Assembly (NCBI GenBank): GCA_044892525.1
Contig: CM097887.1
Location: 72,540,001 to 72,604,000, forward strand
Length of the DNA: 64,000 nt
Reading direction: 5' to 3'
Origin: Schmidtea polychroa
Taxonomy: Eukaryota
In this document: positions 1-53,998 of the stretch, one piece after another
Position numbering within the stretch: position 1 is the first letter of the stretch
Layout: each line of letters starts with the position of its first letter
The notes under the pieces: model-generated
Database searches by the model: none
The model's input: the letters and a program-made list of their open reading frames with translations, nothing else
What the model was told of the DNA's origin: nothing
Program-made: the position numbers and the translations under genes

Positions 1-495
1 TTTCTGCCATTGTCAATACATTGATCTCCCCCAATCTCATGGGTGTTATTCCGACATCTGCATTATCATCTAACGATTTTCCGAATAGTTGTAGGTGAAA
101 TGGAGTTTCGTATGCTAATTTCTTTTTTAACTCTCTGATCTTTGTTGTTGGATGTACTTCTGTATCCTCAATGCTTTTGTCGGGATACTTGACTCGGATA
201 CGATACCTTTCCTGGGTATCTTGTGCCCACTCTTGGTTTCTCCATTTTCTAATAATTTGTTCTAGCTGTTCTGGGTACCATTCGTTATATTGTCGGTATT
301 CCTCAATCGCTTTCGCCATTTCTCTTAGATTGTGGATATTCTCTGATGTCTTTAGGATGATGTTAGCCAATGCTACTACTTGTCGTTTTTGATTTTTTGC
401 TCCCGTTGCTAAGATATCACCTAATTGTTTATATCTTTCCTTCTCTTCTCGTTCTCGAGCTTCCATCGCTTCCTCGCTGTCCATATCGGCATATT
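1..495 (-). CDS. Continuation of the polyprotein with a third ubiquitin-like domain (open to the window edge; not in the ORF track)
   Basis: ...YRIRVKYPDKSIEDTEVHPTTKIRELKKKLAYETPFHLQLFGKSLDDNADVGITPMRLGEINVLTMAE shows the ubiquitin/NEDD8 pattern (I.VK..K.IE..V.PT.KI..LK.KL...L...GK.L.D). Confidence 0.7.
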
Positions 496-779
496 CGCGT
501 TCTTTCTTTCTCATCGCATGAATATGTCTGGTTTCCGTTTCACTTTCGGACGTGACGTCCGTTTCGCTTTCCTCGTCGTCGTTCGTGTTCACCAATGTCT
601 GTTTCTACGAAAATTCCTTTCCTGACTTCCCACTCTTTATTTTCCGCATTCCACATCCTTTCCCAGGGAGTTCGTCTGCAAGATCTAGTACTCAGTTTCT
701 TTATTTTCCCTTGTAGTTCCTTTTCGTTTAACCATTGTTGATGAATTTCAATTATTTCTACTGATTTTTGGTATAGCGT

Positions 780-2879
780 TTACATCCTGTCGCGTATCTC
801 TTTCTGGTATGTCACATCTCTTGTTCGGAATTCGTCCATTGGCAATATTCTAATTATTTGATGATTATCCCACATTCCCATTTCGCTTAACGAGGTGTCG
901 TCCTCAGCCCGTAATATTATTTTGTCGTATATCATGACTACATTATCTATCATACCATCGCTACTCTCGCTTCGCACCTTTTCTGTTATCTCTTGGTTTA
1001 TCTTTGATACTAAGTCATCCACCGTACTTTGATTACTCATTTTTATTCGTCGTTTCTCCTCGTTTGGTAACCATATGGTTATTTCCAATCTCTGCGGTTG
1101 CGTTTCTTTTATTCTTCCATATTTGTGGATCAAATTTATGGTTCTCCAATCGCTCATTCTGAGCAATTCTGTATCTCGTAATCGGCTCATTAGTTCATGC
1201 ATAGCTGGAGTTCGTTTTGCTATGAGCAAATCCCAGTTGTCTTCAACTTGTTCTTGGATTTGTTTGATTAATTTATCTAGATTTCGTCGCAAAGTACATT
1301 GTTTTATTTGTTCTAATTTTAGCTTGATATTAAAATCGTATTCGGCCTTGGCGTCCTTCGCCCATTCGTAAACGTTGGCTGGTTGTTTCTCTTTATGCAA
1401 CTTCAATATTTGAGTTTCCCCTGGCCAGATCAATGCATCTATTAGGTGCATGTCTGGTTTAATTTGTTCTCCTTGGTATTGATATAGATACTCTTTCTTT
1501 CTCGAGCTGCCCCAATGTTCTCTTATCCAATCAAAAAGCTCGTCTGTGACTGTACTTTTTATCCATATTCTCTCGAGCTCTTTACTCGTTCCGATTTTTA
1601 TTACATAGCGTGTTGTCTCCGCTTGTTTCATTTTTTCCATATACTTCTTTATTATCGTTTTCTCCTCGCTTGGTATCAAGTCTTTTTCGTTTCTTTCTAG
1701 TTTCATTATCTTTTGTAAGAAGCGTTTATATGGTATAAGGTCGATGAACTCCTGGTTTCTTACTACCACTGGAAGTATTTCCTTTACTTGTTTTATCGCT
1801 TCCTCTCTTTCTTTTCTCAATTTCATCTCGATATTCTCATCTTCACTTTCACTTGTCACGTCGCTTTCACTCTCGTCTTCATCTGCTCCGATCTTCTCTC
1901 TTAGTTGTTCGATATTTTCATTTAACTGCAATGTTTCTCCACCCAGGCTACTCACGTAGTCCTCATCGTCATCTGTTGACAATACCTTCTTTGTCGTCCT
2001 CATCATATTAATTCGTAAATTTCTCATTCTTGGAACTTTCTTTAACTTTTTATTCTCGAGTATTGTTAGCTCTTCGGAGCCTAATTCCTGTACCATGTCA
2101 TGATTTAGATGATTACTCTGTTTCTCATTTTCGTCATTTTCCACTTCCGCCTCTGTTTTGCTTTTCTCGTGCTCTCTTTCGATTTTTTCTTTTATCTTTT
2201 TCCAAAATATTTTCTGAATTCTCTGATTACCTTTTAACGGTGTTGTTGGATTTTCCTTTTTCGCTTCTGTAATCGTTTCTTTCGGTTTCTCTGGTTCGAT
2301 CAATGGGACTACTCTTGGATTTTTCCCATAATTGTAGCAATATTGCTCTTTTATCTCCTTTACCATCCTCATCATATTTATTCGTAATGGTTGTTCTTGT
2401 CGCTGCTGAATTCGCTCTCTTTTTATTCTCTCTTCTTCAGCTTGTAGTCTCTGCCATTCTTGTGCATGTTGTTGTACTTCGTAATTGTTAAGATTCTCGG
2501 TGCTCCTCATCATACGTATATTCTGAGTTTGTTGTGGTGCTGGTTCTTGTCTTGGTCTCATCATTTGTTGCATCATTTGTTTCATTTGGGAAATTTCTTG
2601 CATCACATTCATTTGTTTTCCCTCACTGGGGTTACCTTGTCGTTGCTGATTTGGTGCATAATTATTATTTCGCTGTGGTGGTCGTTGTTGTTGGCCCCTT
2701 TCTCGGCAGTCTCTTGAGATGTGACCCGGCTGACCACAGTTAAAACATCCTCTCAATTGACATATGTTTTCCGTGTGTCCTCGTCGTCCGCACCTATTAC
2801 AATTGGCGTTTCTATAACAATCTCTATCCCAATGCCCTGGTTTACCGCATGTTCGGCATTGTTTGCTGTCGTTCGTATT
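780..2879 (-). CDS. Gag nucleocapsid (3 CX2CX4HX4C knuckles) plus long extension with two ubiquitin-like domains
   Basis: Reading through from 2879 gives CRTCGKPGHWDRDC, CNRCGRRGHTENIC and CFNCGQPGHISRDC. Ubl-like segments lie at about 1612-1390 (RYVIKIG...YQYQGEQIKPDMHLID) and 1092-838 (LEITIWLPNEEKRRIKM...STVDDLVSKI...LRAEDDTSLSEMGM). Confidence 0.75.
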   Translation of the reverse strand, partial: NTNDSKQCRTCGKPGHWDRDCYRNANCNRCGRRGHTENICQLRGCFNCGQPGHISRDCRERGQQQRPPQRNNNYAPNQQRQGNPSEGKQMNVMQEISQMKQMMQQMMRPRQEPAPQQTQNIRMMRSTENLNNYEVQQHAQEWQRLQAEEERIKRERIQQRQEQPLRINMMRMVKEIKEQYCYNYGKNPRVVPLIEPEKPKETITEAKKENPTTPLKGNQRIQKIFWKKIKEKIEREHEKSKTEAEVENDENEKQSNHLNHDMVQELGSEELTILENKKLKKVPRMRNLRINMMRTTKKVLSTDDDEDYVSSLGGETLQLNENIEQLREKIGADEDESESDVTSESEDENIEMKLRKEREEAIKQVKEILPVVVRNQEFIDLIPYKRFLQKIMKLERNEKDLIPSEEKTIIKKYMEKMKQAETTRYVIKIGTSKELERIWIKSTVTDELFDWIREHWGSSRKKEYLYQYQGEQIKPDMHLIDALIWPGETQILKLHKEKQPANVYEWAKDAKAEYDFNIKLKLEQIKQCTLRRNLDKLIKQIQEQVEDNWDLLIAKRTPAMHELMSRLRDTELLRMSDWRTINLIHKYGRIKETQPQRLEITIWLPNEEKRRIKMSNQSTVDDLVSKINQEITEKVRSESSDGMIDNVVMIYDKIILRAEDDTSLSEMGMWDNHQIIRILPMDEFRTRDVTYQKEIRDRM

Positions 2880-3611
2880 TCATCGATTATTAAAGTTGTT
2901 CCCATTATTTGAGTTGTTGCGTTCGTTGTTATTCCCGTTTGATCGTCCTTGTGGTGGTTTGAAAATTTGATGCGAACCTGGTATAAACTGATTCATCTTT
3001 GGTTCGTGATTGTTGTTATCTCCATTTTCCGTTTTCACCGTTGCTGATGCGATTCTTCCCTCCTCTTGCATGACATTCATTTGTGCTGGGAGGTGTAGTT
3101 CGCATCTTGTGGCCCAATCTATGGCCTCTTCTAGTGTTTTACACATTTGACATCCCACCGAGGCTCTTACCTCCTCTCGGCGTAGTCCTTCTATGAAATA
3201 ACCAATTAAATTTTCCTCCGGCAGGTTTCCGTTCATGGCTTTTTTTGCCAATCTTCGCAATTCGCTGGCGTATAACGTTATTGACTCGTTTGCTCTTTGT
3301 TTTCTACTTACCAGTTCACCTAACGCTTGATTTATTGGTTTGCTGGCTCCGAAGGTTTTCCTCAAAAATGTTTTGATGCTTTCCCAATTGTCTAACTTCG
3401 TATTCCTCTCTTTTGCTTCTAGGTATACTTCGAGTGCGCTATCGCACAAAAACAGAGGCATTCGTTTGCTAATTGCTTCCGCTGTCCATCCGCACACATC
3501 GATATAGACTTCAAAATTGGTTATGAACGTTGCCAACTTGTTCGCATTCCCGTTAAATGGTTCGCCTCTAAATTTTTCTTTATACTCGTCGGTTTTTACC
3601 GCATTCGTCAT
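2880..3611 (-). CDS. gag: Retrotransposon Gag capsid domain
   Basis: EPFNGNANKLATFITNFEVY...WESIKTFLRKTF, MHR-like RKQRANESITLYASELRRLA, and YFIEGL...TLEEAI. Confidence 0.85.
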   Translation of the reverse strand: MTNAVKTDEYKEKFRGEPFNGNANKLATFITNFEVYIDVCGWTAEAISKRMPLFLCDSALEVYLEAKERNTKLDNWESIKTFLRKTFGASKPINQALGELVSRKQRANESITLYASELRRLAKKAMNGNLPEENLIGYFIEGLRREEVRASVGCQMCKTLEEAIDWATRCELHLPAQMNVMQEEGRIASATVKTENGDNNNHEPKMNQFIPGSHQIFKPPQGRSNGNNNERNNSNNGNNFNNR

Positions 3612-4866
3612 GACTGGTTCTTGAAACTCTATTGTTTCTTTTAAATTTTCCAGCGATGTCGCTAAATTATGGACGGATAATTCTTCTGTTGACCCGGTTA
3701 GGTTGTTTGTTATATCGGATAGGCTTTCTCTGCTTCTAGATCGACTAGGGGTGTATCCGAGGTTTTCTTGGTCAAATGTTGGTACTTGATTTGTTCTTCT
3801 TGCTTCTTGTGATATTCCTCTTTGCTGTTTTATGGACCGTCCTCTTCTGAGCTGTTCTAGTTCGTCTCCTGAAAATAATACGTCTCTTGACTTACTTGAG
3901 GATCTGAGATTTGGTTTCTCCGTGATTCCTTCTTACGCCTCTTTATCGTCTCTTATGGATTTCTCGGCAATTAGCGGCTGCTGACTTGAGTGAATTCGGT
4001 TCTGTCGGTGTTCCGAGTCCTTGGCAAATGGTTGTTAATGCTATGAGACGTCTTCCGTTCTTGGAATCTTCGGGTTGTGTTACTCCTACTGAGCGGGTTC
4101 TGGATTGGTTATTTCTGGTTGGTCGTTGATTTCTTCGAATTCCTTTGTGTAGGTTCTGGATTGGCTTGATTGACTGGGTTGGTTTGCTATCTAAAATGAA
4201 AAAATGATCTCGTGTTGCATCTGCTTACACGACTTCATCATTCTTTCTGCAACATTCAAACACAGACACCGTTTAGGGCCTCTGTTATGCTTTTCTTTAT
4301 TTCCCCATACAATTCCTCGTGGATTATAGTTACCCATCAACCCATAGTTTTCGTCGATTTTAAATTATCTATTTGGGGTAGTAATAATTATCTATATGGT
4401 CGTATCAATTATCTATAGTTATCATTTATAATATCGATAGGTCGTTGTCAGTTACTGCTTATCACCCCCCATATCCTTTTACGCGGTTCCGCTATTTTAC
4501 TTAATCTTTCGTCTCTGTTTCCCTTTACTCGGTTCTACTCTGAACCAAAAATCAAATTCGTTTATCCGGTTTAAACCCACAAAAAAAATCTGTAGAACTC
4601 CGTCTACTCACCTGGGGTCCCTTTAATTAATTAAAATTTTTCTTCTTTTATTCATCATCTAATCACACTTATTCTTTGTTTTCATTAACCTTAATTCATT
4701 TTCCTTTTTTGTTTCTTTGTTTCCACTAAAAGAATTTTACCATTATCTTCTACGAGCTCGTTTAATCCTTTCCAAATTCAAATTCCTGTATCTGAATTCA
4801 GTTCGTCTCTAGCTAGCTTAATATTTTACCTCATTATTAACTTAAATACTATCCAATCATTTTCTA

Positions 4867-5690
4867 GGCCTTTACGACTGGCTGGCACTTTTCAACAGCT
4901 CAATCTTCATCATCTCCGAACTGGCTGGACTTTTCACAGCTCAGTTTTTAATTGTTCCTGACCGGCTGGACTTTTCCAACAGCTCGGCCTTACGACTGGC
5001 TGGCACTTTTCAACAGCTCAATCTTCTTCATCTCCGAACTGGCTGGACTTTTCACAGCTCAGTTTTAATTTTCCTGACCGGCTGGACTTCTCGACAGCTC
5101 GGCCTTACGACTGGCTGGCACTTTTCAACAGCTCAATCTTCTTCATCTCCGAACTGGCTGGACTTTTCACAGCTCAGTTTTTAATTTTTCCTGACCGGCT
5201 GGACTTTTCGACAGCTCGGCCTTACGACTGGCTGGCACTTTTCAACAGCTCAATCTTCTTCATCTCCGAACTAGCTGGACTTTTCACAGCTCAGTTTTTA
5301 ATTTTTCCTGACCGGCTGGACTTTTCCAACAGCTCGGCCTTACGACTGGCTGGCACTTTTCAACAGCTCAATCTTCTTCATCTCCGAACTGGCTGGACTT
5401 TTCACAGCTCAGTTTTAATTTTCCTGACCGGCTGGACTTCTCGACAGCTCGGCCTTACGACTGGCTGGCACTTTTCAACAGCTCAATCTTCTTCATCTCC
5501 GAACTGGCTGGACTTTTCACAGCTCAGTTTTTAATTTTTCCTGACCGGCTGGACTTTTCGACAGCTCGGCCTTACGACTGGCTGGCACTTTTCAACAGCT
5601 CAATCTTCTTCATCTCCGAACTGGCTGGACTTTTCACAGCTCAGTTTTTAATTTTTCCTGACCGGCTGGACTTTTCCAACAGCTCGGCCT
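4867..5690. repeat. Hierarchical tandem array: 7 units of ~117 bp, each with 3 copies of a ~22-nt core
   Basis: Units start at 4867, 4986, 5101, 5218, 5336, 5451 and 5568 (lengths 119, 115, 117, 118, 115, 117, 118). Core is CYGGCTGG(C)ACTTTTC..ACAGCTC, present 21 times. No ORF. Confidence 0.95.
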
Positions 5691-6270
5691 TAATATCTCC
5701 GATTCTGCATGCTTCCACTTCTTTCCTATCTTTATTCTAGACTGTCCTTTTCCTATTTTTACTTTTTATTTGTCGATCTAATCTGTGCCGCTTGAGAATG
5801 TTTCCCCTTTCCCCCCTTGCTCAAAACGCAAAACGATCGCATTGATCCATTTCTACATTGGTATGGTGATCAGCCATACCGCAGAAACTTTTCAATATTC
5901 GCGATGGTACCTCGCCTTACATCTCTTACTCGGGGTGATCGGTTATCCCTTCCCAACCGGTTTTCGTGTATCGTACCTCCCGAAGGTGGCTCGGTTTATT
6001 CCCCTTTTAATCCTATGTTGGGACTAGTTCCACTTTATGCAAATCACTTAACTTATAGATAATCTCTCTCCATGGTGAAAATTAATCATAAAATTACTGA
6101 GATTCACAACAAAAATGAACACACAAAGATTTCTATTCGTAATTCAGCATTGCGCCACATACAATATATTATATTACTAGAAAATTGTTGATACATTAAA
6201 TAAAAGTTAAAAGAAACGTTCAATCAAATTGTCAGTTAAATCAATTCTTCCATCGAGTGATGATCGCATC

Positions 6271-6750
6271 TTAATTGAAATATACCGTGTGCTTCTCCTT
6301 TATCACGCACGCACACAAAGAACAATGGGTTAAGTCAACGACGCACTCATCACAATGACTTAGATGTCCGCAAGGTAAGATCAGCATTCTGCCGGGCCGC
6401 GTCTTACAGATGTTGCACGTTCTTAATGCTGCGGCTTTTTCCTCAATCAAGGCTCGAATTCTTTTAGTCAGAGTCTTTACCTGTCCGCGTATCCTTACGT
6501 ATTCTGTATTTAAATCGGGATCGTCGAGACGTTGTTGAAGCCACTGGTAGTGCAGAGACAAGTCGGTGTCGGTATTGGCTGCTCCCAGTTTATCGGTTAA
6601 GAAGTTTTGTTTCGATATTAGTGGGGCGTTATGGCGTTGTTGTTCTACCCTCTCTATTTGCTTCAGTTTCTCTTTTAATGTCCTTATCGAATCATTTTCT
6701 ATGTCGATGAATCTACTTAGCTGTTGTAGATGTTTTCTAGCTTCCGACAT
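6271..6750 (-). CDS. Element-borne coiled-coil + C-terminal C3HC4 RING protein (IAP/RNF34/MDM2-type RING), 159 aa, intact
   Basis: CNIC-x11-CGH-x3-CDEC-x6-CSLC followed by 13 residues ending TVYFN. ATG start and stop are intact, and a TTTTTTTAG acceptor lies 2 nt upstream of the ATG. Confidence 0.85.
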   Translation of the reverse strand: MSEARKHLQQLSRFIDIENDSIRTLKEKLKQIERVEQQRHNAPLISKQNFLTDKLGAANTDTDLSLHYQWLQQRLDDPDLNTEYVRIRGQVKTLTKRIRALIEEKAAALRTCNICKTRPGRMLILPCGHLSHCDECVVDLTHCSLCACVIKEKHTVYFN

Positions 6751-7209
6751 ATCTAAAAAAAATGTGTTGTTATTATTTGTTCTTACTGGTATTACTAGTA
6801 ATATTATTATGTTTGTATTTAATATTCGTTTGATTTTTATTTGTTATTGTTTCTAACTTTTGCGTTTTATTCAATCTTTGAAATTCCCCTCGTGTTGTCA
6901 CTTTAATCATTTAATTTTATTATCCTTACTTCCCCTTGTTCCCCCTTTTTAATAAATAAATTCAGATTAGTAATAAAAACTTAGTTAATTCCCGTTTTCT
7001 TTTCCCATCATACTCAATCATGTTCCTTCATACTCATTTAGACTCATTTATATTCATGCATGCTCTAGGTCAAACACAAACAGTTCGTATAATCATTCTA
7101 TTGCAAATACCGATTCGTTTCCGTCCCGATTCTATTTCGTTATCATGATTAATTGAGTTAACACATCATAGCACAGTAACAGGCAATCAAAGCAAATCGA
7201 ATTGACAAT

Positions 7210-7227
7210 ATCCCGGCTGAGCCCCCA
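7210..7227 (-). promoter_or_regulatory. Primer binding site, tRNA-Pro type
   Basis: Minus strand reads TGGGGGCTCAGCCGGGAT, a 16/18 match to the classical tRNA-Pro PBS TGGGGGCTCGTCCGGGAT, located 7 nt inside the LTR end CCCAACA. Confidence 0.85.
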
Positions 7228-7414
7228 AAAATCATGTTGGGCGTAGGTGGGGAAGAGAAAAGTATACATGCATTTCTATCACGCCTATCAAGCCTCATCA
7301 TTTCGTTTAGACGCTCCCCATACATACTCCACATGATCATTCGCATATTCCCACGTATGAGCCCGTGGTGATGTTCCACGTTGGTGCTGCTCACACAGGT
7401 CGGAAAGAGTTAGC

Positions 7415-7489
7415 AGGTGAGCCCCTGCCTTAGGACTACTCCTAACCCTTTTCTCGGTACGGGTCCTACGGTGCCTTAGAAGGACTTAC
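7415..7489 (-). promoter_or_regulatory. Conserved LTR box with a 5' splice donor (GTAAGTCCTT ... GAGTAGTCCTAAGGNAGGGGCTCACCT)
   Basis: The same two blocks in the same order, about 190-250 nt from a CCAACA LTR end, occur at 35846-35924 (+) and 53447-53520 (+). Confidence 0.75.
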
Positions 7490-7811
7490 CCATGCTTCAC
7501 GCATCATTCGGTCCACCCTGGTCCAAAGGGGACGACATTCAAGCTTCTACTACTCCTTCAGGATCCTCCACTCATGAGATTCAATCATAGCCAATCATAC
7601 ATATAATTAACGCAATCGGAAAACAAGCGAACAGCTGTATTAGAACAAAACATCAAAATACACTCAAAATTAGGTAAGTAGACACAAAACATTAACGACT
7701 TGTACAAAATAATGTCACTCCTTCGAATTCGTTCATGGTAGTAGGGGAATCGAGACTTGAGAGAAAACTCACTGTGAGAATGCTTCTCCTTCCGCGAGCA
7801 TCTCGTCGATG

Positions 7812-8369
7812 TCAACGGGCAACCGGTATTGGCCCGAGTATTGGAGCCAAGATAGGGTCCGAGGGTCCACCAGACATAGGCCGATAACCAGAGAGAACGG
7901 GGGCGGGAATTGGTGGCAATTGTGGGCCATGCCCCTTGCAATTAGTTACTGACGATGATTCAGCTGACTGGTGATGCCCGGGGAACACATTAGTCCCCTC
8001 TTGTATCGGGTATTCGCGAACTCGCTTCGCTATCTCTGCTTCGGAGTATACTTTATGCAGCGCCTCTGATTGGGCTTTTATGGTTAGCCGCTGGCATCTA
8101 CTCTCTTCCAGGAGACTGTCACGGCAGTGCTCCAGGCGTAGAATCTTACTCTTCTCCTCTTTCATCTGTGGTGGGGAGAACCACGTTCCCTCATAGAGGT
8201 CAATTCTCTTCTTTAATTCCCCAATGTACAAGTGCAACTGTGCGATGTCTGCATTTTTGTCCGAACATGAGAAGCATGGACGGAGATCTTTTCTGGACTG
8301 GATCGGTGTAGTCATCTGAAGATAAAGAAGGTTTCCATTAAGGCGGGGTTGCGAACAGCTTTCCCTCAT
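7812..8369 (-). CDS. ORF-X copy 1: unknown LTR-encoded protein (CxxC, coiled coil, EGTWFSP motif); likely start at Met 8315
   Basis: PCFSCSDKN...IDLYEGTWFSPPQMKE...LEHCRDSL...QSEALHKVY...NVFPGHH...CKG. Homologous to four other copies in the window. A CTTCAG acceptor lies directly before ATG 8315. Confidence 0.7.
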   Translation of the reverse strand: MRESCSQPRLNGNLLYLQMTTPIQSRKDLRPCFSCSDKNADIAQLHLYIGELKKRIDLYEGTWFSPPQMKEEKSKILRLEHCRDSLLEESRCQRLTIKAQSEALHKVYSEAEIAKRVREYPIQEGTNVFPGHHQSAESSSVTNCKGHGPQLPPIPAPVLSGYRPMSGGPSDPILAPILGPIPVAR

Positions 8370-8524
8370 GATTATTTAGTTCCCTCAACATACAATTTCG
8401 CTGACCCTCGACCGGTCTCCGATCGGAGACGGTCCTTAAAACCATTATTTACTACGACCACTCATATTCACATCAACGTAAACCATGCAAGATTAGAAGA
8501 AAACGGGAGTCATAAATAAAACAC

Positions 8525-8617
8525 TTTATTATATTTGCTATGTACTGTATATCTCCTACATGTTGATGATTTATCTAAGTTATTCTGCTAATTTTCGGGA
8601 AAACCTTCGCTTTTATA
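8525..8617 (-). promoter_or_regulatory. Putative LTR TATA box (8617-8610) and polyadenylation signal (8530-8525)
   Basis: TATAAAAG followed about 80 nt downstream by AATAAA on the element strand. Motif match only. Confidence 0.45.
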
Positions 8618-11054
8618 ATTATAACATTTAAATTTTCCGTTGTTTGTTATCGGTGACAATTTTATTCAATATCGTGACCTATTGAGAGTCGTTGGGTCTG
8701 AATGTCACAGGGAGTGAAATGACTATCGCTTGGAGTACTCGACCTCCTCGTACCGGAAATGAGAATTTAAAAAAACTCGTCGAGAATTTTAATTATTACT
8801 TCGAATTATCTAAAAGTTCGTTTAAATTAGCGGCGTTAGTGTAGTCATGGAAACCCCAACTATTCATTCCTACTCTGCATGTATGTGAGTATGCATATAT
8901 TTCACTGTGTTAAGATTATAGTATGCCGGTATTACTCTTACCCACGGCTAGACAATTCTCGTTGAAATTAATTTCACTAAATGATTTCGATGTCGCTGAC
9001 TATGTTCGCACACACCGTCTCACACTGTTATATCATTACGTCATTTTCCTACTCGAGTTACTACGGTGGATCAGCTTGCTTGTGTGCATCATTGGACATA
9101 CTGATGATTATGCATGGCGTGGATACCTGATTTGATACTAGAAATATTCAGTTAGATCTATCAACACAGTGTTTCGAATTTGGAGTTTTATTATCGCCTT
9201 GCCAAGTTGGAATTATGAGTGAGTGATTATAAGGTCTACTCGATGTTTATCTCTGCTAATCTCTATCAAGCGCCGTTACTGGACCTTCATGGCCTCGTTA
9301 TCCGGGTATTGGAGGTGCTCAGGCGAATGCTTATCGGTCGTCTACGACTAATTTCCAGCAGGCCCGGACTAAAAGATAATTTCCCTAGTTTGCTGACCTC
9401 AGATTTTCTCAAGGCTGTCGTGAATATTTACATTCACTATCGGATGATTTTCATGTGTCGTATAGGTTCTACTTTTAGCGACGATAAGGCCTGTCAAGAA
9501 TGATTGTAGAGTCTGATTAAAGCCGAGAGGATGGATGTACTCGCTAATGCTCTAGTGGTTCAAATCTCTGAAGAAAACTAGAGACAGTTTATACAGACCT
9601 GTCTGGGATTTTCCTTTGCAGCCGAAAACTATGATCCCTTCATAATCAATTCACCGAAATTCGAAAGTTTAAAACAATAATCATGTCGAATTGGAGCATA
9701 ATGAAGTACGGCAGTACGTGGAAATGAAGATTCTGTCTCATGTCTTTTCCGGAAAGTTTTAAACGGAGTTATTATTTGTATCAATTGTCGCAATTCTGTC
9801 TCTTCTCACCCCTCCTGACTCACACAAGCACAGCATGCATCGCTGCCGCCGCATTTGGACCGTCAGGAAGGACGATTCCATCCCCTCAGATTTCTATCTT
9901 CTTCATCGAAAACAATCATCGCAAATAAACAATAAATTCGTCCGACAATTCAATATTAACGAAATATTATTATTATATAAAATAGTTAGTTACCCGGCGA
10001 CCACGCCGCCTGAAACTCGAACATGATACAAAGTCGGAATGATCCTCGTACACTTCATTTTCCATTCTCAGTGGGATTTAAATTCTCGATTCGATGTCTT
10101 TATTTTCATTACTCGTCTACGAGTATCATCTAGCCCATTCATTCGCGTTTCTGCATCATGTCCGAATTCCAGACGACATCGTCGCCGGTCGCATGGAGAG
10201 AGAGAACATCTTTATAATCAAATAGAAAAATTTATTAAAATTAAATTATTTTGTTCATTCCTTTTTATATAAAAACAAAATTAAAATATGCATCATACTT
10301 ACAATACGTTTCCTTCGAGAGTATTGGAAAAATATCGGTTGAAGTTTTCTGTTCCCAGGTGAATAATATTAATGCTCTGTGGAAATCTCGATAACTGTAT
10401 GAATAGTGTTTCTTGAGTATAGTCCTTGCGAATTGATTTAATGAAGTTTGCTGTAGAGTTTGGTTAAAAAGTGGTCGTTAACAAATTAAAATTTTACCTG
10501 TAGAGTTTGGTTAAAAAGTGGTACTCTACAGATATTTTCCGTTTCTTTTATATTATTTTCTGTCCAATCAGGACGCGACTTGCGTGTAATATTATTATTT
10601 ATTACTATTTTTATGTTTTTTAATGCAATAAGGTATATTTTAATGACTTTTCTCTATTTTTATTATCATTTTATTTATTTTTCTATTTTTTATTATTTCC
10701 CTCCTGTTTTTCCTATGACTTTATTGTTTTTTGGTTATAGTCTAATTTTTTGTTTTAATTAGTTTATGTATTTATTTGATAATGATTTATTTTTATTTTA
10801 TTTCCTAATTTCTGGTTTATTTTTCTTACATTTATTATTTTATTTCCTTATGCTATTATGTGTGGTGCGTTATTTTCTTTTCTCATCTTGTTTTTTCATC
10901 TTTTATTGTTTTCATTGGTTATTGGTCATTCCTTTTATTTCTGTTATGTTTATCTAATTTTATTTGTTCTTCTATTTTTCGCGCTTTTCGTGCAATTTAT
11001 TTTATCCCCCTTATTTATTCTTAACCGGTTTTGCAATACTCTCGAAGCTTGGCC

Positions 11055-11059
<5 letters not shown>

Positions 11060-31929: not shown

Positions 31930-32318
31930 TACAAAGTATATGTGCAAGCCTATCACGGAAGAAGACAATGTCTTCCTCGAACTTCATCAAAAAACAGAAG
32001 TCAGACAACCAACAAGAAATCCTGCAAAAGCTGTGTGGATACGCTTTTATCGCCATGCACTTTCAATATATGTGTCACGGGGGTCAGTCAAGTGACCCCG
32101 AAATCTATTCCACCTCCAACGAAAGACACACCTCCTGTGTCACTGGTCAAATCGAAACGCCGAAAACCGACTCGATTGGAACGAAACATAAAACGAAAGG
32201 CTTTGCAGCACGAGAGACCCAACTAATTGGTGAAGTGGTTCGACAAGCCCTGAAAACTCCACCAGAGGGCAGTGGCTTCAACCGGGTAGTCGTGGGTTAC
32301 AGGTGGTCGGAGGATTAA
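31930..32318 (+). pseudogene. ORF-X copy 2 (C-terminal half, frameshifted), starting at the LTR B edge
   Basis: KVYVQA / PITEEDNVF..H / SCKSCVDTLLSPCTFNICVTGVSQVTPKSIPPPTKDTPPVSLVKSKRRK aligns with copy 4 (ACKGYVETTLSPTSSEIIITDTSQVSPKSAQQPMADKPPVVTEKPKRK). Confidence 0.7.
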
Positions 32319-32679
32319 GTGCTGTTACCAGCGTAACCCAAAATACAACATTAGAGTTTCCACTTGGTACCCTTTGAGTAATCAACGTTGGTACTGTACC
32401 AAGGGTTGAGTACTCTTAAAAAGTGAGCGCATCAAGGCACTATAATTGTCGAGTACTCCATGGGTTCACGGACTACCGATAGAAGGTGTGTGTCCGATTT
32501 CTCAGGTCCCTTATCAAAATTGTTTTCACAAAATCTCAACTCACTAATTCTCAATCACTCGATATTTGCGAACAATATACCTCCTACAACACTTGTTAAC
32601 TAAATTGTATTTATACCATAACAATAAACAACCAAAAATTCAATGCGTATAGTCCAGATGACTGTTCGTATTGCTGGGA

Positions 32680-33091
32680 TTACGTGGGCGTCGCCCTTTC
32701 TTGTCGTTCATACTCGGCTAATCTAGCCTTCTTTAGCTTTTCCCGGATGTTTCGTCCCAGCCGCTTCCTTTTGGGCTTATCTTTCGCGGCCGGAGGGTAG
32801 ATTGCTGCCAACTCCACTTATTGTGGCTCCGTGAACTGCTTGTTCATTGCATTCGGTTTCTAACGCACGGAGTTGGAGCTTCAAGGCCCGGATCTCCATC
32901 TGATCCTGCGCGGCTTGGGTCTGCAGTTGGAGGACCTGCGCCACCTTATTTTTCATATCCTGGGGACTAAACCAGGTGCTTTCTAGTTCTCGGCACCGTC
33001 CCTTGAGTCTGTCCACTCGGACTCGGTGATCCTCGGCCTGTTTTTGTGCTTCTTCCCTGTCCTTTCGCAGGTTCTCCAATAGTTTGAACAC
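32680..33091 (-). pseudogene. ORF-X copy 3 (divergent, antisense in LTR B)
   Basis: Coiled coil with ELESTWFSPQDMK; after a frameshift, KDKPKRKRLGRNIREKLKKARL. Confidence 0.6.
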
Positions 33092-33262
33092 GCTGGGGCG
33101 ACAGGTACTAGCAACGAACTAAGCTCTTCGTCTGCTTACCTTTCCTTCGGTTGTGCTCGTTATGAGTGGTTCGCTCTGCATACAAGTAATTTATTTAATT
33201 TGCTAATTTCTAAATTTCCAGGGGATGTATATCGGATCAGGATATCGATTTTTTTGTAGTTA

Positions 33263-33625
33263 CCTGTAATAATAATAATAATACTAATAGTAATAACAAT
33301 GAAATAACGATACTAATAATAATAATAATAATGATAATAATAATGATTTTAATATTAATAATAGCAATGATAATAATAATACTAATAATAATAAATTTTA
33401 ATAATGGTAATGATGGTGATAATAATAATAATACTAATAGTAATAGTAGCAAGAATAATAATAAATTTTAATAATGGTACTGATAATGATGATAATAATA
33501 ATAATGCTAATAATGATAATCATAATAACAAGAATAGTAATACTAGTAGTAATGATAATAATAATGTGGACACTACTAATAGTAATAATGAGGGAAATGA
33601 TCAGGATTATGATAATTATAATTTT
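33263..33625. repeat. Degenerate (AAT)n low-complexity tract
   Basis: Read directly from the sequence. Confidence 0.9.
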
Positions 33626-36600
33626 ATGATCCCATGGTTTAGAATTATAAATTTATGTTTCATAATTTATGCTTTGATAATTTTCGATTTATAATTTTAA
33701 ATTTTCAATTTAAGGATTTACAATTTTGTACTTTATAATTATAATTTCAGATTTTGTAATTTATACATTCGTATTTTATAAGTTATAATTGTTTATTTGG
33801 TAATTTGTAAGTTTATATTCTAAAATTTATACTTTTGTATTTTGTAATTCGTATTTTCATACTTTATAATTTGAAATTTTTTAGTCGACGGAATACACTT
33901 TTTATAACCTCCTTTCTATGATCAACATTGTTTTCCGAAGTACTTACAGATTTCCTGGTCCTATTTGTGAATTAAACTTCGGAGTGCTAACGCGTCTATC
34001 GCCTATCTGTAACTAATCCCAAGTTGATTTACGAAAAATTGTTCACTACTGTCTCTGATCAGACTTTCTCCATTAACAATTTATATTTTTAGGATCAACA
34101 TGATTGTACCTAGCTATCGTAATCATTTATAACTTATGGTTTTATAGTTAACAAAAGAATATTACAACTAAGAGTTTACACATTTACAAGTATTTTAAAG
34201 TGGAATCAGCATATCTAGATCAAGTTATACCTGTACGTATGCCGAATGTCTCTTATTTCTATGACTTTATCAAAGATCCTTACTACAAAATCTGGTTCGG
34301 CATATGTCCAAGTATAATTGAAATTACCATAAAGGATCAACTAGCTACATCACTGTGAGTGCAGAATTGTGTAATTTTAGGTACGAGCTCTGCTCAAATT
34401 AGAACCTTAGTGTAGAGTTATTGTTCAGGATTTTAAGTGTTGAGTTTAATTGTATATTACGCAATGAGTCGGGAAGAATATTGCTTCCATGGCCCCACTG
34501 TGACCACTTCCACAAACCTTAGTGTTGTGTGCTAAGTCAACCATTTACGGCTGACCTTAAATAAATACGAAGAGTCAGACGGAGGGTTTCCTCGACCTAA
34601 CTCCATGGCAGGACCATGAAGTAGTTCGACCTCCGGCTGACCCGAACAAAAAGACCCATATAATAAGAGATTATTATAATATAAATAATGCATGTGTGCA
34701 TGTGCTATGAGGATATTAACAAATTGGATGCAGGACTGAACAACGGCGCAGGAATACCAATACGCCGTTGAACATTCGTACATCAAAAAAAAATTTAATA
34801 AAAAAAAATCAAATATGGAATTACTTTAATCTTAAGTAAATCATAACTACATGATAATAATAAAAAATTCAATCATATATACTCACTATGTGGATTGGAA
34901 AAGTTTTGTTCAAAATTTGGCATAAAATAATGATTAATTCTGACTGAAACGTGTCAGTATATATACCTATTTTGTACACGTGTATGTATTGATGCATTAA
35001 AACAAACTCGAATTCTTTTTATTCCAGAATTTTCTATTTTGCGATTTTGATATTTTTAATGGCAATTTTTGTGCCATAATTTTTGTTTTTATTTTTATAT
35101 TTTTATTTTTTAATTATTTTTCGTTAATTCGACGTTCATGATGGATTTGGAACGGTTCCAGAACATTCCATGTTAATTTTAATTTTATTTTTATTCTAAC
35201 TGATGTTTTATGAATTTCTTTTTAAGATTTATTATTTTTAATACTAATTTATTTATTTTCTCTAACTTTTATTGTTCTAGCTGGCTTTTGTGATGGTCAT
35301 CGCCATTTTAATGGAATGTTCTAGGTTTTTCTGGAATTTTTTTTTTGGTTTTTATCGTCTTTTAAGTTATTCGAGTCTGTTTTACGTTTATCTGTGTTTA
35401 TTTGGTTATTTTCGAGTTCTATTTTGCATAACCTCTTGCTTTTGGTATAATTTATTTAATTTCTGTGTTTAGGTTTTTGTTGTTTTTTCCTTTAATTACT
35501 ATTGTTTATTTGGTGTAGTTTTTAATATTTAACTATACTTTTTGCTTTTCGCATGCTGTGTACTTACACATTTCAGTCACAATTAGAAATTTGGGTCTAG
35601 AAGTCAGTTCTAGCCCAACAGTAGTTTCGCGTCGATCCACCGTCCAGTACTTCCTGGGAAGAAAACGCCAGGGACTTCTTCGATTTGGACAAGATTTTAG
35701 CGCAATAAAATGATTTGAATTCATTTGGGGTTGAAGGTTTTAAATCTATGATACAACTTGGTGGAATGTGATTGATTCTTAATGTCGTGTATCTGTGGAG
35801 AAAGAGGGAGAACGCAAATCAAGCTCTCAATGAGCGAGGTAAGACGTAAGTCCTTCTAACGGCTGTCAGAAGAAGGGTAAGCCGGAATATGGTGAAGGAG
35901 TAGTCCCAAGGAAGGGGCTCACCTACTTCGCCATCATGGCACAGTACAAACATAATGTAAGTCATGGGTGTCATGGTGTGAGAATGATCATGGAGGATCT
36001 GACTAGCGATCGACAAAAAGAGTTTGTTTAGTTTGATTGACCTTCGTCCCCTAGTAGAGAGTGAATGTGTGTTGACCTAGTCGACAACCCAACACATCTC
36101 AGATTCAAACACTGCATATTTTCATCGCCCAAATCTTTTTAATTAATCAGTTAAACAGGCATAACAATTCCATTAAAGTTCTCATCTATTTTGATTTAAG
36201 TTTATCCACAAATTATTATCATGTTTAAAATTTAAATAAATTATGTTTGACCCTATTTTTCTGAGATACAAAATCAATTTTGTTGACGCTACACTTTGAT
36301 TATATTTATAAATCAAAAGCCCTATTTATAAAATCACAGACTAAATTGTTTTCTAAAACTAGTCCGTATTGCTGTGGTACATCCATTAATATTAACATTT
36401 ATTTCAAATAGTTTTTTCCTTTCTTGGGGGTCTTCTAGAGTATACTTATCCCATACTTTTGATGTTTTAGTTTTTAAAAACATAAATAATGGTTAAAATT
36501 TTTATTGATACTTTTCTAAAAATAAAACTGAATTTATTATTTATCTCACCAAGGATTTGAAAATCAACAAAATTTAAAACATTTAGTATAATTTGAATGA

Positions 36601-39800: not shown

Positions 39801-42800
39801 TTAGAAACGTCCTAGCCACTATTAAAGCCAACCTCGACAATTTAAATCATGAAATCAAGCCGTATTCATTTCAAGTCGATAGCAAAGGCAAAACCACTAA
39901 GTCATAATAGTGTAAAAATATGAAATTTGGATAATGTTCAATTTTTAAAGCCAACATACCAATCCATCGCTCAATTGGTTTTTGATAGTTATTATTTTAC
40001 TTTAGTTTGGAGAATTTATTGTTCAACAGATTATCAGATGTGTTTTTACAAGTTTTTTGTGTAGTATTTTCAAAAAAATGTAATTGATAAAAAGCACAAA
40101 TTTTATTTGGTTTGTTTAAATAGAGTAAAACATTTCATTTTTATTGAATATTAAATTTGAGTATAATTAATTGTAATATTGGTAGCCGACGAGTTGATCG
40201 AAAAATATTATTTTTAAGGAATTAAAAACTTTTAAATTTTTTCTTTATATGCAGAAACTTAAAATGTGTTTATAATAGCATTTGTTGCAAAAAATTAGTG
40301 ATAATAATTTAAATATTTAAAAAATTAATTTGAAAATGGATTTACAATTCTTTATTAGTGAAAAAGGAAAACAGAAATTGTTTTTAAATGGATGTTTATT
40401 CTATAAGGACAAAAGTTTTGAAGCCAAAATATATTGGCGATGTGAAAACTATAAAACTAAATGCAGTGCTTGTGTAATAACGGAAAACGGCATTTTAGTT
40501 AATTTTAAAAATATTCACAATCATGTGATAGATGTAGCAAGCGTTCAAGCTAAAAATGTCATCAGCTGCATTCGCCAGGAAGACCTCATTACTCGTGATG
40601 CACCACAATATATTGTAGCTTCATCTTCAGCATTAGTAAGCCGAAGTGTTGCCGCCAAATTGCCCAGCGTGCCGAATCTTGCAAGAACTATATGGACTGT
40701 TAGAGCGAAGAAAAATAAAGGCCCACCTATTCCCAGATCAAGGCGTGATATTGTATTCAGTGATGAATATACAAAAACAAACAAAAATGAAAAATTTCTT
40801 TTATATGATTCTGGAGCTGAGGATAACGACCGCATATTAATTTTTTCAACACAAACAAATTTGGATATTTTACGGCGTTCTCTTCATTGGCACGGTGATG
40901 GTACTTTTAAAACCGTTCCTCCATTATTTGAACAATTATATACTATTCATGGATTGGAAGATAATATATCAATTCCATTAGTATTTGGTCTCCTCCCAAA
41001 TAAACGAGAGGAAACATATGTACGTTTTTTGAAAGCAATAAAAGAATTAACTGGTCATTGCAATCCTCAAACTATAATGACGGATTTTGAAGTCGCAATG
41101 ATCAACGCATTTCAACGAGAATTTCCACTATCCAGGCATTGTGGTTGTTTTTTTCATTTTAATCAATGTATTTGGCGTAAAATACAATCATCTGGACTAA
41201 AACAGCAGTATGAAAATGATCCATAATACGCATTAAAATTTCGAATGCTTGCTGCAATGGCATTTGTTCCAACAAATGTTATTATAAACACATTTGAAGT
41301 TTTATGTGAAAGTAATATATTTACTGACGATATGCTACCTGTGGTTGATTATTTTGAGGACACATGGATTGGACGACCTATTCGTCTCATAGGACGCCGC
41401 CCACCGAAATTTAATCACCAATTATGGAATTGGTATGAAGTGGCATTGCAGAATTTGCACAAGACGAACAACAATCTCGAAGGATGGCACAATGGATTTC
41501 AGACATTGCTGAACGCTCTTCATCCAGGAATTTGGAAATTCATCGAACTGTTAAAGAAAGAAGAAAGCTTAAATGAACTAAAAATAGAACAATATCTAAG
41601 TGGACAGCAACCTCCACAAAAGAAGAAAAAATATCGTGATCTTGAAGCAAGATTGTTGCGGGTGTTCAATCTTTGGGATGAAAATATTGATATAAATGAT
41701 CATTTACGATCGATTGCTCACAATGTTTCATATTAAATTTTAAAATTATAATATAAATATTATGTACATATATAAATAAAATATTTAAAATTTCTGTATA
41801 TAAATAAAATATTTAAAAGTTTTTAATTTTTTAAAAAGAGACATGCTTTTTTGAGATAAAATCCTCAACTCGTAAGTTCCTTAAAAATATTATTTTTCGA
41901 TAAACTCGTCATTCGATCAATTGATCATTCGATAAACTCGTTTTCGATAAACTTACCGAGAATCGTAATATTTCCTTATTCAAAATAAAATTATGTGTGA
42001 AATTATTTATGCTTCAATGGAAATTTATATAAATACAGTTTATAATAAAAGCAAATTTGAAATATTAAATTCTTGGCTGGTTAAAGAATTTAAAGATCTT
42101 AAAGCAGCTTGAAAAAGTTATGGGATTTCTAAAGAAGAACAAATCATGTTTTAATGGGTACCACCCCCCCCCAAATAGGACCGCGTAGATAGAAATATTC
42201 GTATGTAGAAAAGAAAGATATTGTATGTATGTTGACTTCAAAATGACGTCATCCGTGACTTTTTAAGCGTCAACTGGTAAATGCCAAAAGAATGCCTACC
42301 TATCACAGAATGCGTTAGCAAGAGTGGATGTATCAGGCTGGTTAGGAAGAGAATATGTGGCGGTGCGGTGTAAAATAGAATTTAGGGTTTTCCAGAGCGA
42401 GTGTGGATAAGTGTATAGTTGTTGATGGGGTGTGAAACTTCCGGAAACAGTGTGTTTTTGTTTACTCAGTGTTTACGCGGTTCTATTGGCGGGGGCCTTT
42501 TGCCCAGAGTCCTTATATTAGAGGCCTTTTTTTCGGGTACTTTTATGTCGGGGCCGTTTTGCCAAATGCCCTTTTGTCGGGGCCTTTTTGACGGGTCACC
42601 TTTTTAATGATAGAGTTGAAAGATAATAAATTACTCAGTTCGTTTGGAATTAAATCAGAAAGTTTAATGGAGCTTATCTTTGATTTTAAAATTGAATGGT
42701 ACCAAAATCAATTGAGTGAATATCCTAACATCACCACAATATTGAAAAATGTCAACTCGAAATCTCCATAAGGAAATTGTTCATACTATTTCGCACTTTA

Positions 42801-45800
42801 GGTACCTATATTAACATAGGGTTCAAAGGTATATAACATGTTTTAGATATAATTACGTTCTCTTTAATCCGAAATTAATGAATAGATTGGAATTTATATT
42901 GAAATAAGGAAATAACACTAGATTTGAAAAATCAATATTTTTTAAATTAACCCAATTTCCCATGATAGCATGCAGTGTTCTCGATAACGAATCTACTTGC
43001 AAAATTTCATCTCAATCCGATCACAGAAAGTGGATTTATTTGGCCTCACAATATTTGCGTGGCGCATACAAACATCAGCGAAGTTAATATAGAGAGAGTA
43101 AAACATGAAAATCAGTGAGAAAATAAAATGAAAACTAAATAAACCTTTTCTGTGTTCCGACAGATTTTACTTTTTAAAGTAATATCTGGCAAATCTGTTG
43201 GTCTGCCACCAAATCCGCCGTGATATTGAACTTGCTTGCAGCCTGGCAATTCGGGGTTGTATGTTCCAGGACTAGAACAAATTGTATTACCAAATTAATA
43301 ACTTAGATTATAACCCTGGGGATTCTTCATAGGTCATATTTAGACTACCAAAACGATGGGCTTTCTGCAAAAATGGAGCCGAATTCGGTTTTTTATCATA
43401 GGAATAATCGAACTAGAGAATAAAATAAATTCTTCTTTAAATAAAAACTCGGAAACGCCAAACAAACGCAAATATAATGTAAGAACATTATCATTATCAA
43501 TTTGACATCATAATCTATGTTAACAGTTATATACGTAAACAATAATTACGTAATGGTTATGATTTAATGAGTTAGTTAAATAGTCTCAATAAATTCGTTG
43601 TGGATTGAATGTTAATTGTGATTGAGATTGAGATTAAATCACTAATACCTCACATAAAATTCTTTCCTCCTTATTATTAAAGTTTTATATGATTTTTTTT
43701 AAGTCAGTTGCACCACTACACATTTTATCTTATTGCACATTTCCCATTACACATTTTCCTGATCTTTTTAATATAATGATAATTATTTCTCTACGGCAGA
43801 AAATCTATCATTGAAGCTCATTCTGTTAAAACCATGAGATGAGAAAACTTTGTTTCTCAGCAATGCGTTCGCACGCCTCTAAAGATGTACATGAAACTCA
43901 ATGCATCGATTGCGGAATTGAAATCCGAAGCAATCAAAGAACGACATTGTAGAATGCTTATGAGAAAATAAAGTGAAAACTGGTCACTAAATGAACTGCA
44001 ACTGGGAAGTGTGTGAGATTGAATTTGTGAAAAATGAAGAAATAATAAGGAAGATATCACACCTAGATGAAATCACCAAGTATGACGATAGTGACTGGAA
44101 TATCCACATATTTGTTGATGAATCAAAAAGTGTGTACATTGCGGCAGTTTACATTATAGAAAGATGTGTATGTGAGGGTTATAAAGAATTGAGATGTTAA
44201 AGAAAGTTATTGAGACCAATAACCAAGGTTTGTTTCCTAGAGTTAAATTGGGTTGCTGATCCGCTGGAGTGGATCAAGGATGGGGAAATGTTTCGACCAG
44301 TCAGAGAGGGGAATGACTTCTCATCTGACTGGCTGTATGAATTCGGCTTCGCGTCTGTCTGCGATTGTGGTAGCTATTGTGCCAGGCACAGACGCGGGGA
44401 ATGGTGATTTATGTGGTTTGTGTGGGGTTGGTTTTGTCATTTTTATGGCGTCTATTTCCGCGTTGTTGTTAAATTGTGATTCGTGTATGTGTGCGCACAC
44501 AGACGCGGAATATATTCTTTTTTTAAGAATTAATTGGAATTGTGTGTATTTTTATAGAATTGCTGGAAATGATTTTCGAATGTTAGAATCTTCCAGAAAT
44601 CAGATATGAATTTTTGTTTAAAAACATATATATTGGAACTTTTTTGAATATCGAAAATAATATGAGCAATCCTGATAAAATATTGATGGCCGAGGAAGCG
44701 TTGAAAAGTGTTGAGGAATTATTGAAAGAATATTTATCGCGAATTTATCACATCGATTTATGTAAATTTTATTTGTGTCACATAAAAGATAAAGATAACA
44801 AAACTCCTAGTTTCAAAGAAAGAATGGCTCAAGCTTATGATTATGCTATAGATAAAATGGGTTTGGATTTAAAGACTTTTCCTATTTGGTCAGATCATAT
44901 GAATTTCTTAAAATCAACTCAAGTCAAAAGTCAATATACTGAAAGTCAAAAGACAATTGCTGCACGTCGAATATATTATCTGGCTATTGTTACTCCCATG
45001 GTTGTTATTGAAACAATTTGGAGAGGTTACAATGCTTTCGAAACTTCTATCAATAGTGTCATCGCTAAGAGAATTATCGAAGAGAGAAGTCGGGATTATA
45101 TGAACGCAAGACGAGTTACAGGAAGATTAGAAGCTGGGATTTCAAAAGATGGTCAAACTCGAGAACAATTTTTGTTGATTTATAATCTTGGAGTCAAGCA
45201 AATAATTATTGATCAAAATAAAAACTTGCTTGAGATAATTTATTTTGGTTTAATACAATCTATTCTTCCCTGGCAAAGATTTTATAAATGAATTGAGTGA
45301 AAACAAAACATAATCATTTGTTTATTAGTCCACAAAACATGCGCTGTTGTTTGACCGTGATAAGCAAGTGACTTTCGCAGTTGCCTTTGATTTATTATCA
45401 ATAAGTTCAGCTTTCAATAAAGCCAGAATGGATATGAAGCTTGTTGGTTTCGGTTCCACATGCATTGGTACTTTAATTTCAATCAAAACATCTATAGAAA
45501 ACTGTATTCCAATAACAGGATCTAGATCACTTGTTGTTAAGTGTTTTTTAATTAACCTTTTTTCATAAACATGTCCTGATGATCTATTTAGAACTGGAAC
45601 TTCAGGAATTTCGTTGGAAACAAATTAACGATATTTTATAGAAAATTAGAACAGAATAATATATTTCATCTTGAAAAGTTTTCAAATCCCCAACCGAAAC
45701 TTTATTTTTCAAATCCCAAATCTTGATAGACGATCCAGTTGCAGCACATAGCCAATATATGTTTGGTGAGAAGATATGTTCATTGATAATATTATATCTT

Positions 45801-53702: not shown

Positions 53703-53998
53703 GCTGTAATCATAGGATTCCTGATAATAATATGACAATCCTAATAATGAGGATAATGACCCAGAAAAACAGTCATCAATAATAGGCTTAACCGACCCAA
53801 AAATCACAAATACAACTCTGACAATAAATATTATGAAAACTATTTCCCCTGCCGTCGTCATCAAGTCCTGTTATTTCCAGTCAAAGTTTCGACCTAACGC
53901 ATTCTCTGTTCACTTTAGCCCTTTGAGACAATCTTAATAATTTTTCACGAAATGTGTTTTGTCTTGATTAAATTCTGTCATTTTTTTTGTACCAAGCA

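Follow-up and report, generated by a model that had tools for sequence, protein, structure and literature searches.

The window analysed here is a 64,000-nt stretch of the Schmidtea polychroa genome (G000:C3:72540001-72604000), and its bases 1-11059 are the 5′ part of a Burro-like giant Gypsy retroelement lying on the minus strand; all coordinates below are window positions. We consider it probable that this element expresses its genes from a short AUG-free leader, transcribed from a promoter in the long terminal repeat (LTR) and spliced from a donor at 10302 to several acceptors, each gene having its own start codon and Gag likely an ACG. An earlier note on the same sequence had proposed that one LTR donor, at 7489, supplies an in-frame start both to a RING-finger gene and to gag. 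Spliced gag expression and alternative acceptors are supported by our comparison, whereas donor 7489 as their source and the supply of a start codon are not. The comparison set comprised 62 natural 5′ stretches of the family, compared individually, with counts varying by the number located per site.

Predicted leader exons and a genomic copy lacking an intron

The sequence downstream of a predicted CCAAT-TATA promoter has the organisation of a two-exon leader (Table 1). The exon 1 repeat and its donor were found in 17 of 23 LTR stretches, enclosing a predicted intron 1 of 46–52 nt; the intron is absent in L016 and L130, and the promoter was not found in three stretches. Exon 2 contains no ATG in 2602 nt (17 copies), against 126 in an equal length after the donor. 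From the promoter, the position of an AATAAA and the spliced copy described below, we infer a U3 of ~540 nt, an R of ~310 nt (about 10522-10215) and a U5 of ~3 kb. An open reading frame (ORF) within the LTR, termed ORF-X, donor 7489 and a covarying stem-loop are therefore placed in U5, and the LTR promoter likely lies ~3 kb upstream of 7489.

One genomic copy carries the fingerprint of splicing. In L028, promoter, exon 1, intron 1 and exon 2 are followed directly by the ATG of ORF-X; compared with its relative L023/L114, 2151 nt are missing, with GT at their start and AG at their end, and one base differs two positions before the joint. Among 23 genomic matches to the L028-type exon end, 21 continue with GTAA and two with ATGA. 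The latter two lie 25.2 kb apart on one strand and are both LTRs of one insertion: they show 3 differences over ~2060 aligned bases, with a 4-nt target duplication on either side. A single round of reverse transcription generates both LTRs, and the template was therefore most likely a spliced RNA, in which a 10302-type donor would have been joined to the ORF-X acceptor while the 7489-type donor, still unspliced in L028, and the primer binding site (PBS) were retained. This one junction appears to be fixed in DNA, and conservation points to the others.

Intron 1 is closed by an exact 25–28-nt copy of exon 1 in 16 of 17 repeat-bearing LTRs, though exon 1 itself varies between subfamilies. Its loss in L016 and L130 may reflect either splicing or a deletion between the repeats. 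L028 has kept intron 1 and lacks intron 2, a pattern that fits regeneration of intron 1 during strand transfer.

The CCAAT-TATA-exon unit (10568-10303), together with the spliced copy, speaks against trans-splicing and against a conserved block ~530 nt before ORF-X as the promoter. This block (CATGAC ... TTTAAA, 8850-8820), found by pattern in 24 of 51 copies, lies within predicted intron 2. Donor-like sites at 8941 and 3936 were dropped as non-conserved.

Acceptors, start codons and donor 7489

The T-rich AG/AT acceptors that the earlier note had placed at 6754-6753 and 4192-4191 are present and conserved, with YAG (Y, pyrimidine) in 60 of 61 copies at 6752 and TAG in all 61 at 4190; CAG and TAG variants both occur at the acceptors. 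The RING ORF is 150–175 aa long in 51 of 61 copies and in every one of the 61 has its own ATG 2 nt after the acceptor, and YAG immediately precedes the ORF-X ATG in 48 of 51. Taken together, the separate ORFs have their own ATGs 0, 1, 2, 2, 3 and 6 nt after an acceptor-like AG, the 3′ accessory ORFs being preceded by YAG at 2, 6 and 3 nt and by AAG at 1 nt. These offsets span all three phases, and an upstream exon therefore cannot supply a single reading frame. A rule set after the sites had been seen (YAG 0–6 nt upstream, at least 6 T in 15 nt, no other AG) selects five of the six separate ORF starts and 11 of 582 sense ATGs, those five included. The earlier note had also described acceptors 0–3 nt before the ATG of several ORF-X copies; YAG does stand at 0 nt (8315) and 3 nt (the relic at 52478), whereas the relic near 54000 has a weak AAG at 2 nt.

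The gag leader, from 4190 to the gag ATG, is free of ATG in all frames in 52 of 56 copies, while the same length upstream holds 8–18; an insertion is present in one of the four exceptions, and the gag ATG is missing from one further copy. The last ATG upstream of the acceptor lies 30–51 nt away in 52 of 53 copies, which makes the ATG desert begin at the acceptor. AGT, GAT, GTA and TAG are frequent in the leader despite the missing ATG, and in the window copy seven ATGs would be expected by base composition and about two by dinucleotide shuffling.

From acceptor 4190, the open gag frame is reached in none of 56 copies (six of the 62 stretches were dropped, having no acceptor or gag), including 26 in which gag stays open up to the limit of the stretch. 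Whatever the phase, no frame beginning at the acceptor exceeds 98 codons, whereas the gag ATG lies 504–687 nt away. That gag is unreachable from 4190 is a state of the family and not damage to the window copy. The frame that the earlier note had described as open for ~80 codons does run for 81 codons in phase 1 and ends at TAA 3945-3943. Its suggestion that a single frameshift would then lead into gag fails, as the gag frame has its own TAA at 3935-3933; a programmed frameshift was rejected because of the same stop.

The gag frame is open for ~107 codons before its first ATG: a stop is followed by three codons and then by an ACG. In 56 of 57 copies an ACG stands here in frame with gag; a purine at −3 and G at +4 occur in 53 and the stop three codons earlier in 52, and the +4 G is kept across Glu, Asp and Ala codons. 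The ratio of non-synonymous to synonymous substitution (dN/dS), taken from non-independent pairs, was 0.35 from ACG to 3868, 0.30 from 3868 to the ATG and 0.05 in the capsid (7 lineages). By this measure the N-terminal extension of Gag appears to evolve like protein, and Gag likely starts at ACG 3923, with leaky scanning to ATG 3611. The acceptor-like site at 3868 also encodes Phe-Ser-Gly, with codons upstream of it under coding constraint, and may be coding sequence only.

The motif ATGG/GTAAGT at 7489 was confirmed in the minus-strand sequence, as was the resulting M-D-M-S-E in frame with the RING ORF (6750-6271). Of the motif, GTAAG is conserved in 58 of 59 located copies and the preceding ATGG in 20 of 59; as the earlier note had itself cautioned, the ATG is missing from other LTRs, the relics at 35846 and 53447 reading GAC/GTAAGT. 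Set beside the mixed phases of the ORFs' own ATGs and a gag frame unreachable from 4190, this does not support a shared start codon. A second caveat, that a further phase-0 ATG stands upstream of the donor, was right as well. In favour of the earlier note, an ATG open to the donor occurs in phase 1 in 41 of 59 copies, in phase 0 in 22 and in phase 2 in 9 (hand count), and 19 subfamily representatives gave 11, 6 and 4 for the same phases. The 50 nt before 7489 contain 3.55 ATGs per 100 nt, with 4 of 53 copies having none, versus 0.136 in the gag leader (53 copies) and, being ATG-rich, are unsuited as a leader. Nor does 7489 look like a leader donor by position: it sits within the LTR, 255 nt before its end and behind the whole ORF-X frame, while the likely promoter and two AUG-free exons, with donor 10302, lie ~3 kb upstream. 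ORF-X, lying in U5, appears to be reached inside the 5′ LTR and not, by the junction that had also been suggested before, in the 3′ LTR. The sequence just upstream of donor 7489 and of the ORF-X acceptor varies between subfamilies, the donor columns are unpaired in a consensus fold, and an AATACA hexamer occupies near-invariant columns −152 to −147 from the donor (19 representatives). ORF-X has no Pfam match.

Several observations concern the U5 stem-loop (7453-7403). Its loop region reads CCTAAGGCAGG and in L044 CCTAAGACAGG, which resembles the constitutive transport element (CTE) primer plus AAGACA motif of PMC4330393, an internal loop there and a predicted apical loop here; the likeness may be chance. 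An Rfam search gave no relevant match, with a single chance snoRNA hit (E 0.63). GGCTCA occurs twice in U5 (7423-7414 and 7363-7356) and again in the PBS (7227-7210), and the invariant GGCTCACCTG, read on the plus strand, is a perfect donor, CAG/GTGAG.

Expression model and competing explanations

In the model that we consider probable, transcription would start near 10522, exon 1 (25 nt) and exon 2 (127–203 nt) would form the leader, and R would end after AATAAA 10236. Joining the leader to 8315 would yield ORF-X, to 6752 RING and to 4190 the gag-env-pol mRNA; further acceptors would serve the 3′ accessory ORFs, one acceptor being used per mRNA. On the gag mRNA, ribosomes would scan ~440 ATG-free bases to ACG 3923, and those that pass would initiate at ATG 3611, so that two forms of Gag would result. 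Donor 7489 would likely close an ORF-X exon (8315-7490) and may also act as a U1 site restraining the poly(A)-like signal at 7641, 150 nt before it; the ATG preceding the donor, which in full-length copies lies ~280 nt beyond the stop of ORF-X, would not serve as a start. With 7489 closing that exon, junctions 7490>6752 and 7490>4190 may therefore occur and yet provide no start codon. The PBS would be lost on splicing to 6752 or 4190; the gag-pol mRNA could then not prime reverse transcription, and translated and copied RNAs would form separate pools.

A stronger version, which we hold tentatively and place slightly on the doubtful side, would have Gag-Env-Pol made only from a spliced RNA that lacks U5 and PBS and starts at ACG, the 6.6-kb leader of the copied RNA being untranslatable; one leader would serve at least seven acceptors, ORF-X would be a cassette exon closed by 7489, and intron 1 would rebuild itself. 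If this holds, Gag and reverse transcriptase would act in trans in every case, and this would account for the mosaic combinations of LTR, RING and gag subtypes among copies.

A number of points weigh against our interpretation. No spliced RNA was seen. The fingerprint is a single element and proves the ORF-X junction only, and the mismatch beside its joint leaves a possible deletion by reverse transcriptase within a base of both sites. Genome searches returned no copy joining the leader or 7489 to 6752 or 4190, and none joining exon 1 to ORF-X, 6752 or 4190; absence of copies joined to 6752 or 4190 is expected, because the PBS is missing from such RNAs. Under dinucleotide shuffles the ATG desert is modest (mean 0.4–3.8 expected), because TG itself is depleted: 1–29 of 200 shuffles reach zero ATG in most copies, and more than 100 in one subfamily. 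The exon 2 donor was chosen as the first donor-like motif, and some such motifs contain ATG. Copies are related to each other, which makes the conservation counts non-independent; the dN/dS pairs share this property, and the part from ACG to 3868 spans 17 codons. The model does not account for the excess of phase-1 ATGs before 7489. Contigs of four runs (X1, X6, X2 and X3) on L014 cover introns like exons in three cases and are sparse in one, and none of 15 joints (of 47) in them joins 7489 to an acceptor; these runs look like DNA and are uninformative.

Among the alternatives, the acceptors could receive the host's spliced leader (SL) in trans, by which a polycistronic RNA would be resolved much as flatworm operons are, either alone or beside cis-splicing and above all at the distant 3′ acceptors. 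We regard this as unlikely, although it has precedents: PMC12582326 describes SL trans-splicing in flatworms including a planarian, with acceptors often shared with cis-splicing, and the Gypsy element Cer1 has an SL1-spliced subgenomic RNA (PMC3315495). The placement of acceptors 0–6 nt before ATGs would also suit it. However, the spliced element joins to ORF-X the LTR's own exon 2 and not an SL, AUG-free exons with conserved donors lie upstream, and an upstream donor is said to out-compete the SL (PMC4558846). Moreover, the flatworm SL ends in AUG (PMC12582326); in the window copy that AUG would be in the wrong frame at 6752, and at 4190 it would begin a frame of 34 codons.

The idea of the earlier note, put in its best form, is that donor 7489 with a phase-1 ATG starts both RING, adding M-D, and Gag, the latter via 3868 and not 4190. 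Its appeal lies in the phase-1 ATG open to the donor in most copies, in the shared phase 1 of 6752, the TRAF acceptor and 3868, and in the YAG kept at 3868 in 55 of 57 copies. We nevertheless judge it improbable: 18 of 59 copies, whole subfamilies included, have no phase-1 ATG, neither a promoter nor an acceptor was seen immediately before 7489, ORF-X comes first on an RNA from the LTR promoter, the codons from ACG to 3868 are under coding constraint, and RING has its own ATG throughout. Marginally less probable still, in our estimate, is that 6752 and 4190 are unused, with RING and gag expressed via internal promoters or internal ribosome entry and the motifs being AT-rich look-alikes or parts of RNA structure. 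Some YAG 0–6 nt upstream is a feature of 21% of sense ATGs, U5 after 7489 is conserved as structure, and no junction was seen for either acceptor. Yet the background falls to 2% once T-richness is required, the occurrence of both CAG and TAG variants and the start of the ATG desert at the acceptor speak for use as splice sites, and the like site before ORF-X appears to be used. The leader spliced from 10302 remains our preferred reading.

We found no description in the literature of how a retroelement of 25–30 kb expresses a huge polyprotein and half a dozen accessory genes. Splicing in Burro elements and a Gag start other than AUG in elements of this kind were likewise absent from the papers returned, although the 2018 genome paper with its supplements, which lay outside the search, may bear on the matter. 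PMC8532177 makes no mention of splicing or introns, and PMC11410931 none of trans-splicing. The map supplies exact junctions and a start codon that can be checked in planarian long-read, cap analysis of gene expression (CAGE) and ribosome-profiling data. If it is correct, a Gypsy lineage evolved splicing in the style of complex retroviruses, the mRNA for Gag-Pol is distinct from the genomic RNA, and Gag proteins as annotated lack ~104 N-terminal residues.

The element, its copies and known systems

Pfam matches in the window comprise the gag capsid, zinc knuckles and the RING ORF; to the left of the window they comprise a viral fusion glycoprotein, protease, reverse transcriptase, RNase H, integrase, ankyrin repeats and a RING-TRAF-MATH ORF. 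The Ty3/Gypsy domain order gag-PR-RT-RH-IN is present (Pfam, window and L011), and the fusion glycoprotein (PF24664, E 5e-58) lies upstream of RVP and RVT_1 in a frame that stops interrupt in this copy. The LTRs have TG...CA ends and are accompanied by a tRNA primer binding site, LTR pairs are spaced 22–26 kb in the family, and ankyrin, MATH/TRAF and RING cargo was found. BIR and BCL2-like domains gave no Pfam match among the 23 frames scanned, a part of all frames. The window copy is damaged, with a stop at 2882-2880 and further breaks downstream, and no 3′ LTR belonging to it turned up within 30 kb. Neither RING nor the extended Gag had a hit in protein searches.

Table 1 Features of the 5′ part of the element, in window positions.
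Feature	Positions	Strand	Remarks
CCAAT box (ATTGG) and TATA box (10552), predicted promoter	10545..10568	-	aligned in 17 LTRs of diverged subfamilies; function inferred
Predicted exon 1, 25 nt, no ATG	10498..10522	-	followed by donor 10497
Predicted intron 1, 47 nt, donor AG/GTAA at 10497	10451..10497	-	last 25 nt an exact exon 1 copy
Predicted exon 2, common leader, 148 nt, no ATG	10303..10450	-	127–203 nt across copies
Likely major splice donor GTAAGT	10297..10302	-	donor-like motif closes ATG-free stretch in 17/17
AATAAA, predicted poly(A) signal ending R	10231..10236	-	48–144 nt after donor in 16/17 copies
5′ LTR (TGTTGG...CCAACA)	7235..11059	-	~3.8 kb; end by LTR pair L014/L016; start at 11059
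ORF-X with acceptor (AG 8317-8316, ATG 8315)	7812..8317	-	internal deletion of ~225 nt here; ~253 aa elsewhere
AATACA (AATATA or AATAAA in other subfamilies), possible ORF-X poly(A) signal	7636..7641	-	function inferred
ATGG/GTAAGT (G of GT at 7489)	7484..7493	-	donor conserved, ATG unconserved
Covarying stem-loop in U5	7403..7453	-	16/35 predicted pairs with two-sided change, 17 sequences
Primer binding site, 18 nt	7210..7227	-	complementary to 3′ end of host tRNA-Pro(TGG) genes plus CCA
Acceptor (AG 6754-6753) and RING-finger ORF, own ATG 6750	6271..6754	-	PF13920, E 8.5e-08
Tandem repeat, 117-nt unit, ~7 copies	4864..5692	-	within predicted intron; unit and copy number differ among copies
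Acceptor (AG 4192-4191) and 579-nt ATG-free stretch to gag ATG	3612..4192	-	TAG 61/61
Predicted non-AUG Gag start (ACG)	3921..3923	-	104 codons before ATG 3611, after in-frame stop 3935-3933
Further acceptor-like site TTTTCAG/G	3868..3870	-	phase 1 in gag frame; YAG 55/57
Gag capsid (first ATG 3611) and zinc knuckles	2616..3611	-	PF03732, PF19259, PF00098

The PBS pattern has 1658 genome matches, some of which are the PBS of other elements. The first four matches were rejected as tRNAs for that reason, and the tRNA-Pro(TGG) genes were then found in a tandem array with a 475-bp period (G000:C1 ~130.9 Mb, L081). LTR, RING and gag-leader subtypes are combined in mosaic fashion among copies L017-L076, which suggests frequent template switching. 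A close relative at L014 7341-7356 lacks window 3935-1051, the whole gag, has both LTRs and is a non-autonomous derivative. Related LTR and ORF-X relics lie at 31930-35900 and 52478-54400. Elsewhere the window holds a MULE transposase with FLYWCH (40336-41736, +), a transposase-like ORF with a Spin-doc zinc finger (59242-60870, -), a Suf/CstF-77-like fragment (44662-45291, +) and an RNase H relic (48871-49278, -).

The closest known family is Burro/GYPSM1 (PMC6431247), which shares a Gag with CCHC knuckles, a viral fusion glycoprotein between gag and protease, the order PR-RT-RH-IN, ankyrin repeats, MATH/TRAF and RING accessory domains, tandem repeats, ~4-kb LTRs and many copies. It differs in that MATH/TRAF is here a separate ORF downstream of pol and that Pfam matched neither BIR nor BCL2 in the scanned pieces; the likeness is one of described architecture, Burro1-4 having been compared by description only. 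The Burro section of PMC6431247 does not mention splicing, an ORF carried in the LTR or the start of Gag.

As in complex retroviruses, one LTR donor would serve several acceptors, with a single junction recorded in DNA here and the remainder suggested by conservation. Murine leukaemia virus makes glyco-Gag, an N-terminally longer Gag, from an in-frame non-AUG codon upstream of the gag AUG (CUG, on unspliced RNA), whereas here the codon would be an ACG on a spliced RNA. Foamy viruses express gag from unspliced RNA and accessory genes from the 3′ end. Here, in contrast, an acceptor precedes gag, the leader consists of two exons and U5 contains an ORF. In Ty1/Copia elements, introns lie within gag-pol and the product is shortened, unlike the present intron, which lies in the leader and would remove the PBS.

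Foamy viruses offer a precedent for the predicted donor, their own major donor also lying in the LTR, within R and before the poly(A) signal (PMC3694450). Spliced gag RNAs of Ty1/Copia elements likewise involve splicing in LTR retrotransposon expression, and for BARE a title indicates that translated and replicated RNAs form separate pools (PMC5580714, PMC3735527). Cer1 of C. elegans, a Gypsy/Ty3 element, also has a spliced subgenomic RNA for an extra protein, with splice sites skipped for the long RNA; its Gag-Pol comes from unspliced 8-kb RNA and SL1 is used (PMC3315495), whereas Gag-Pol here is predicted to need splicing. The family itself is thus already known, as is splicing in Gypsy (Cer1) and Copia elements, and what is unusual is the corrected model.

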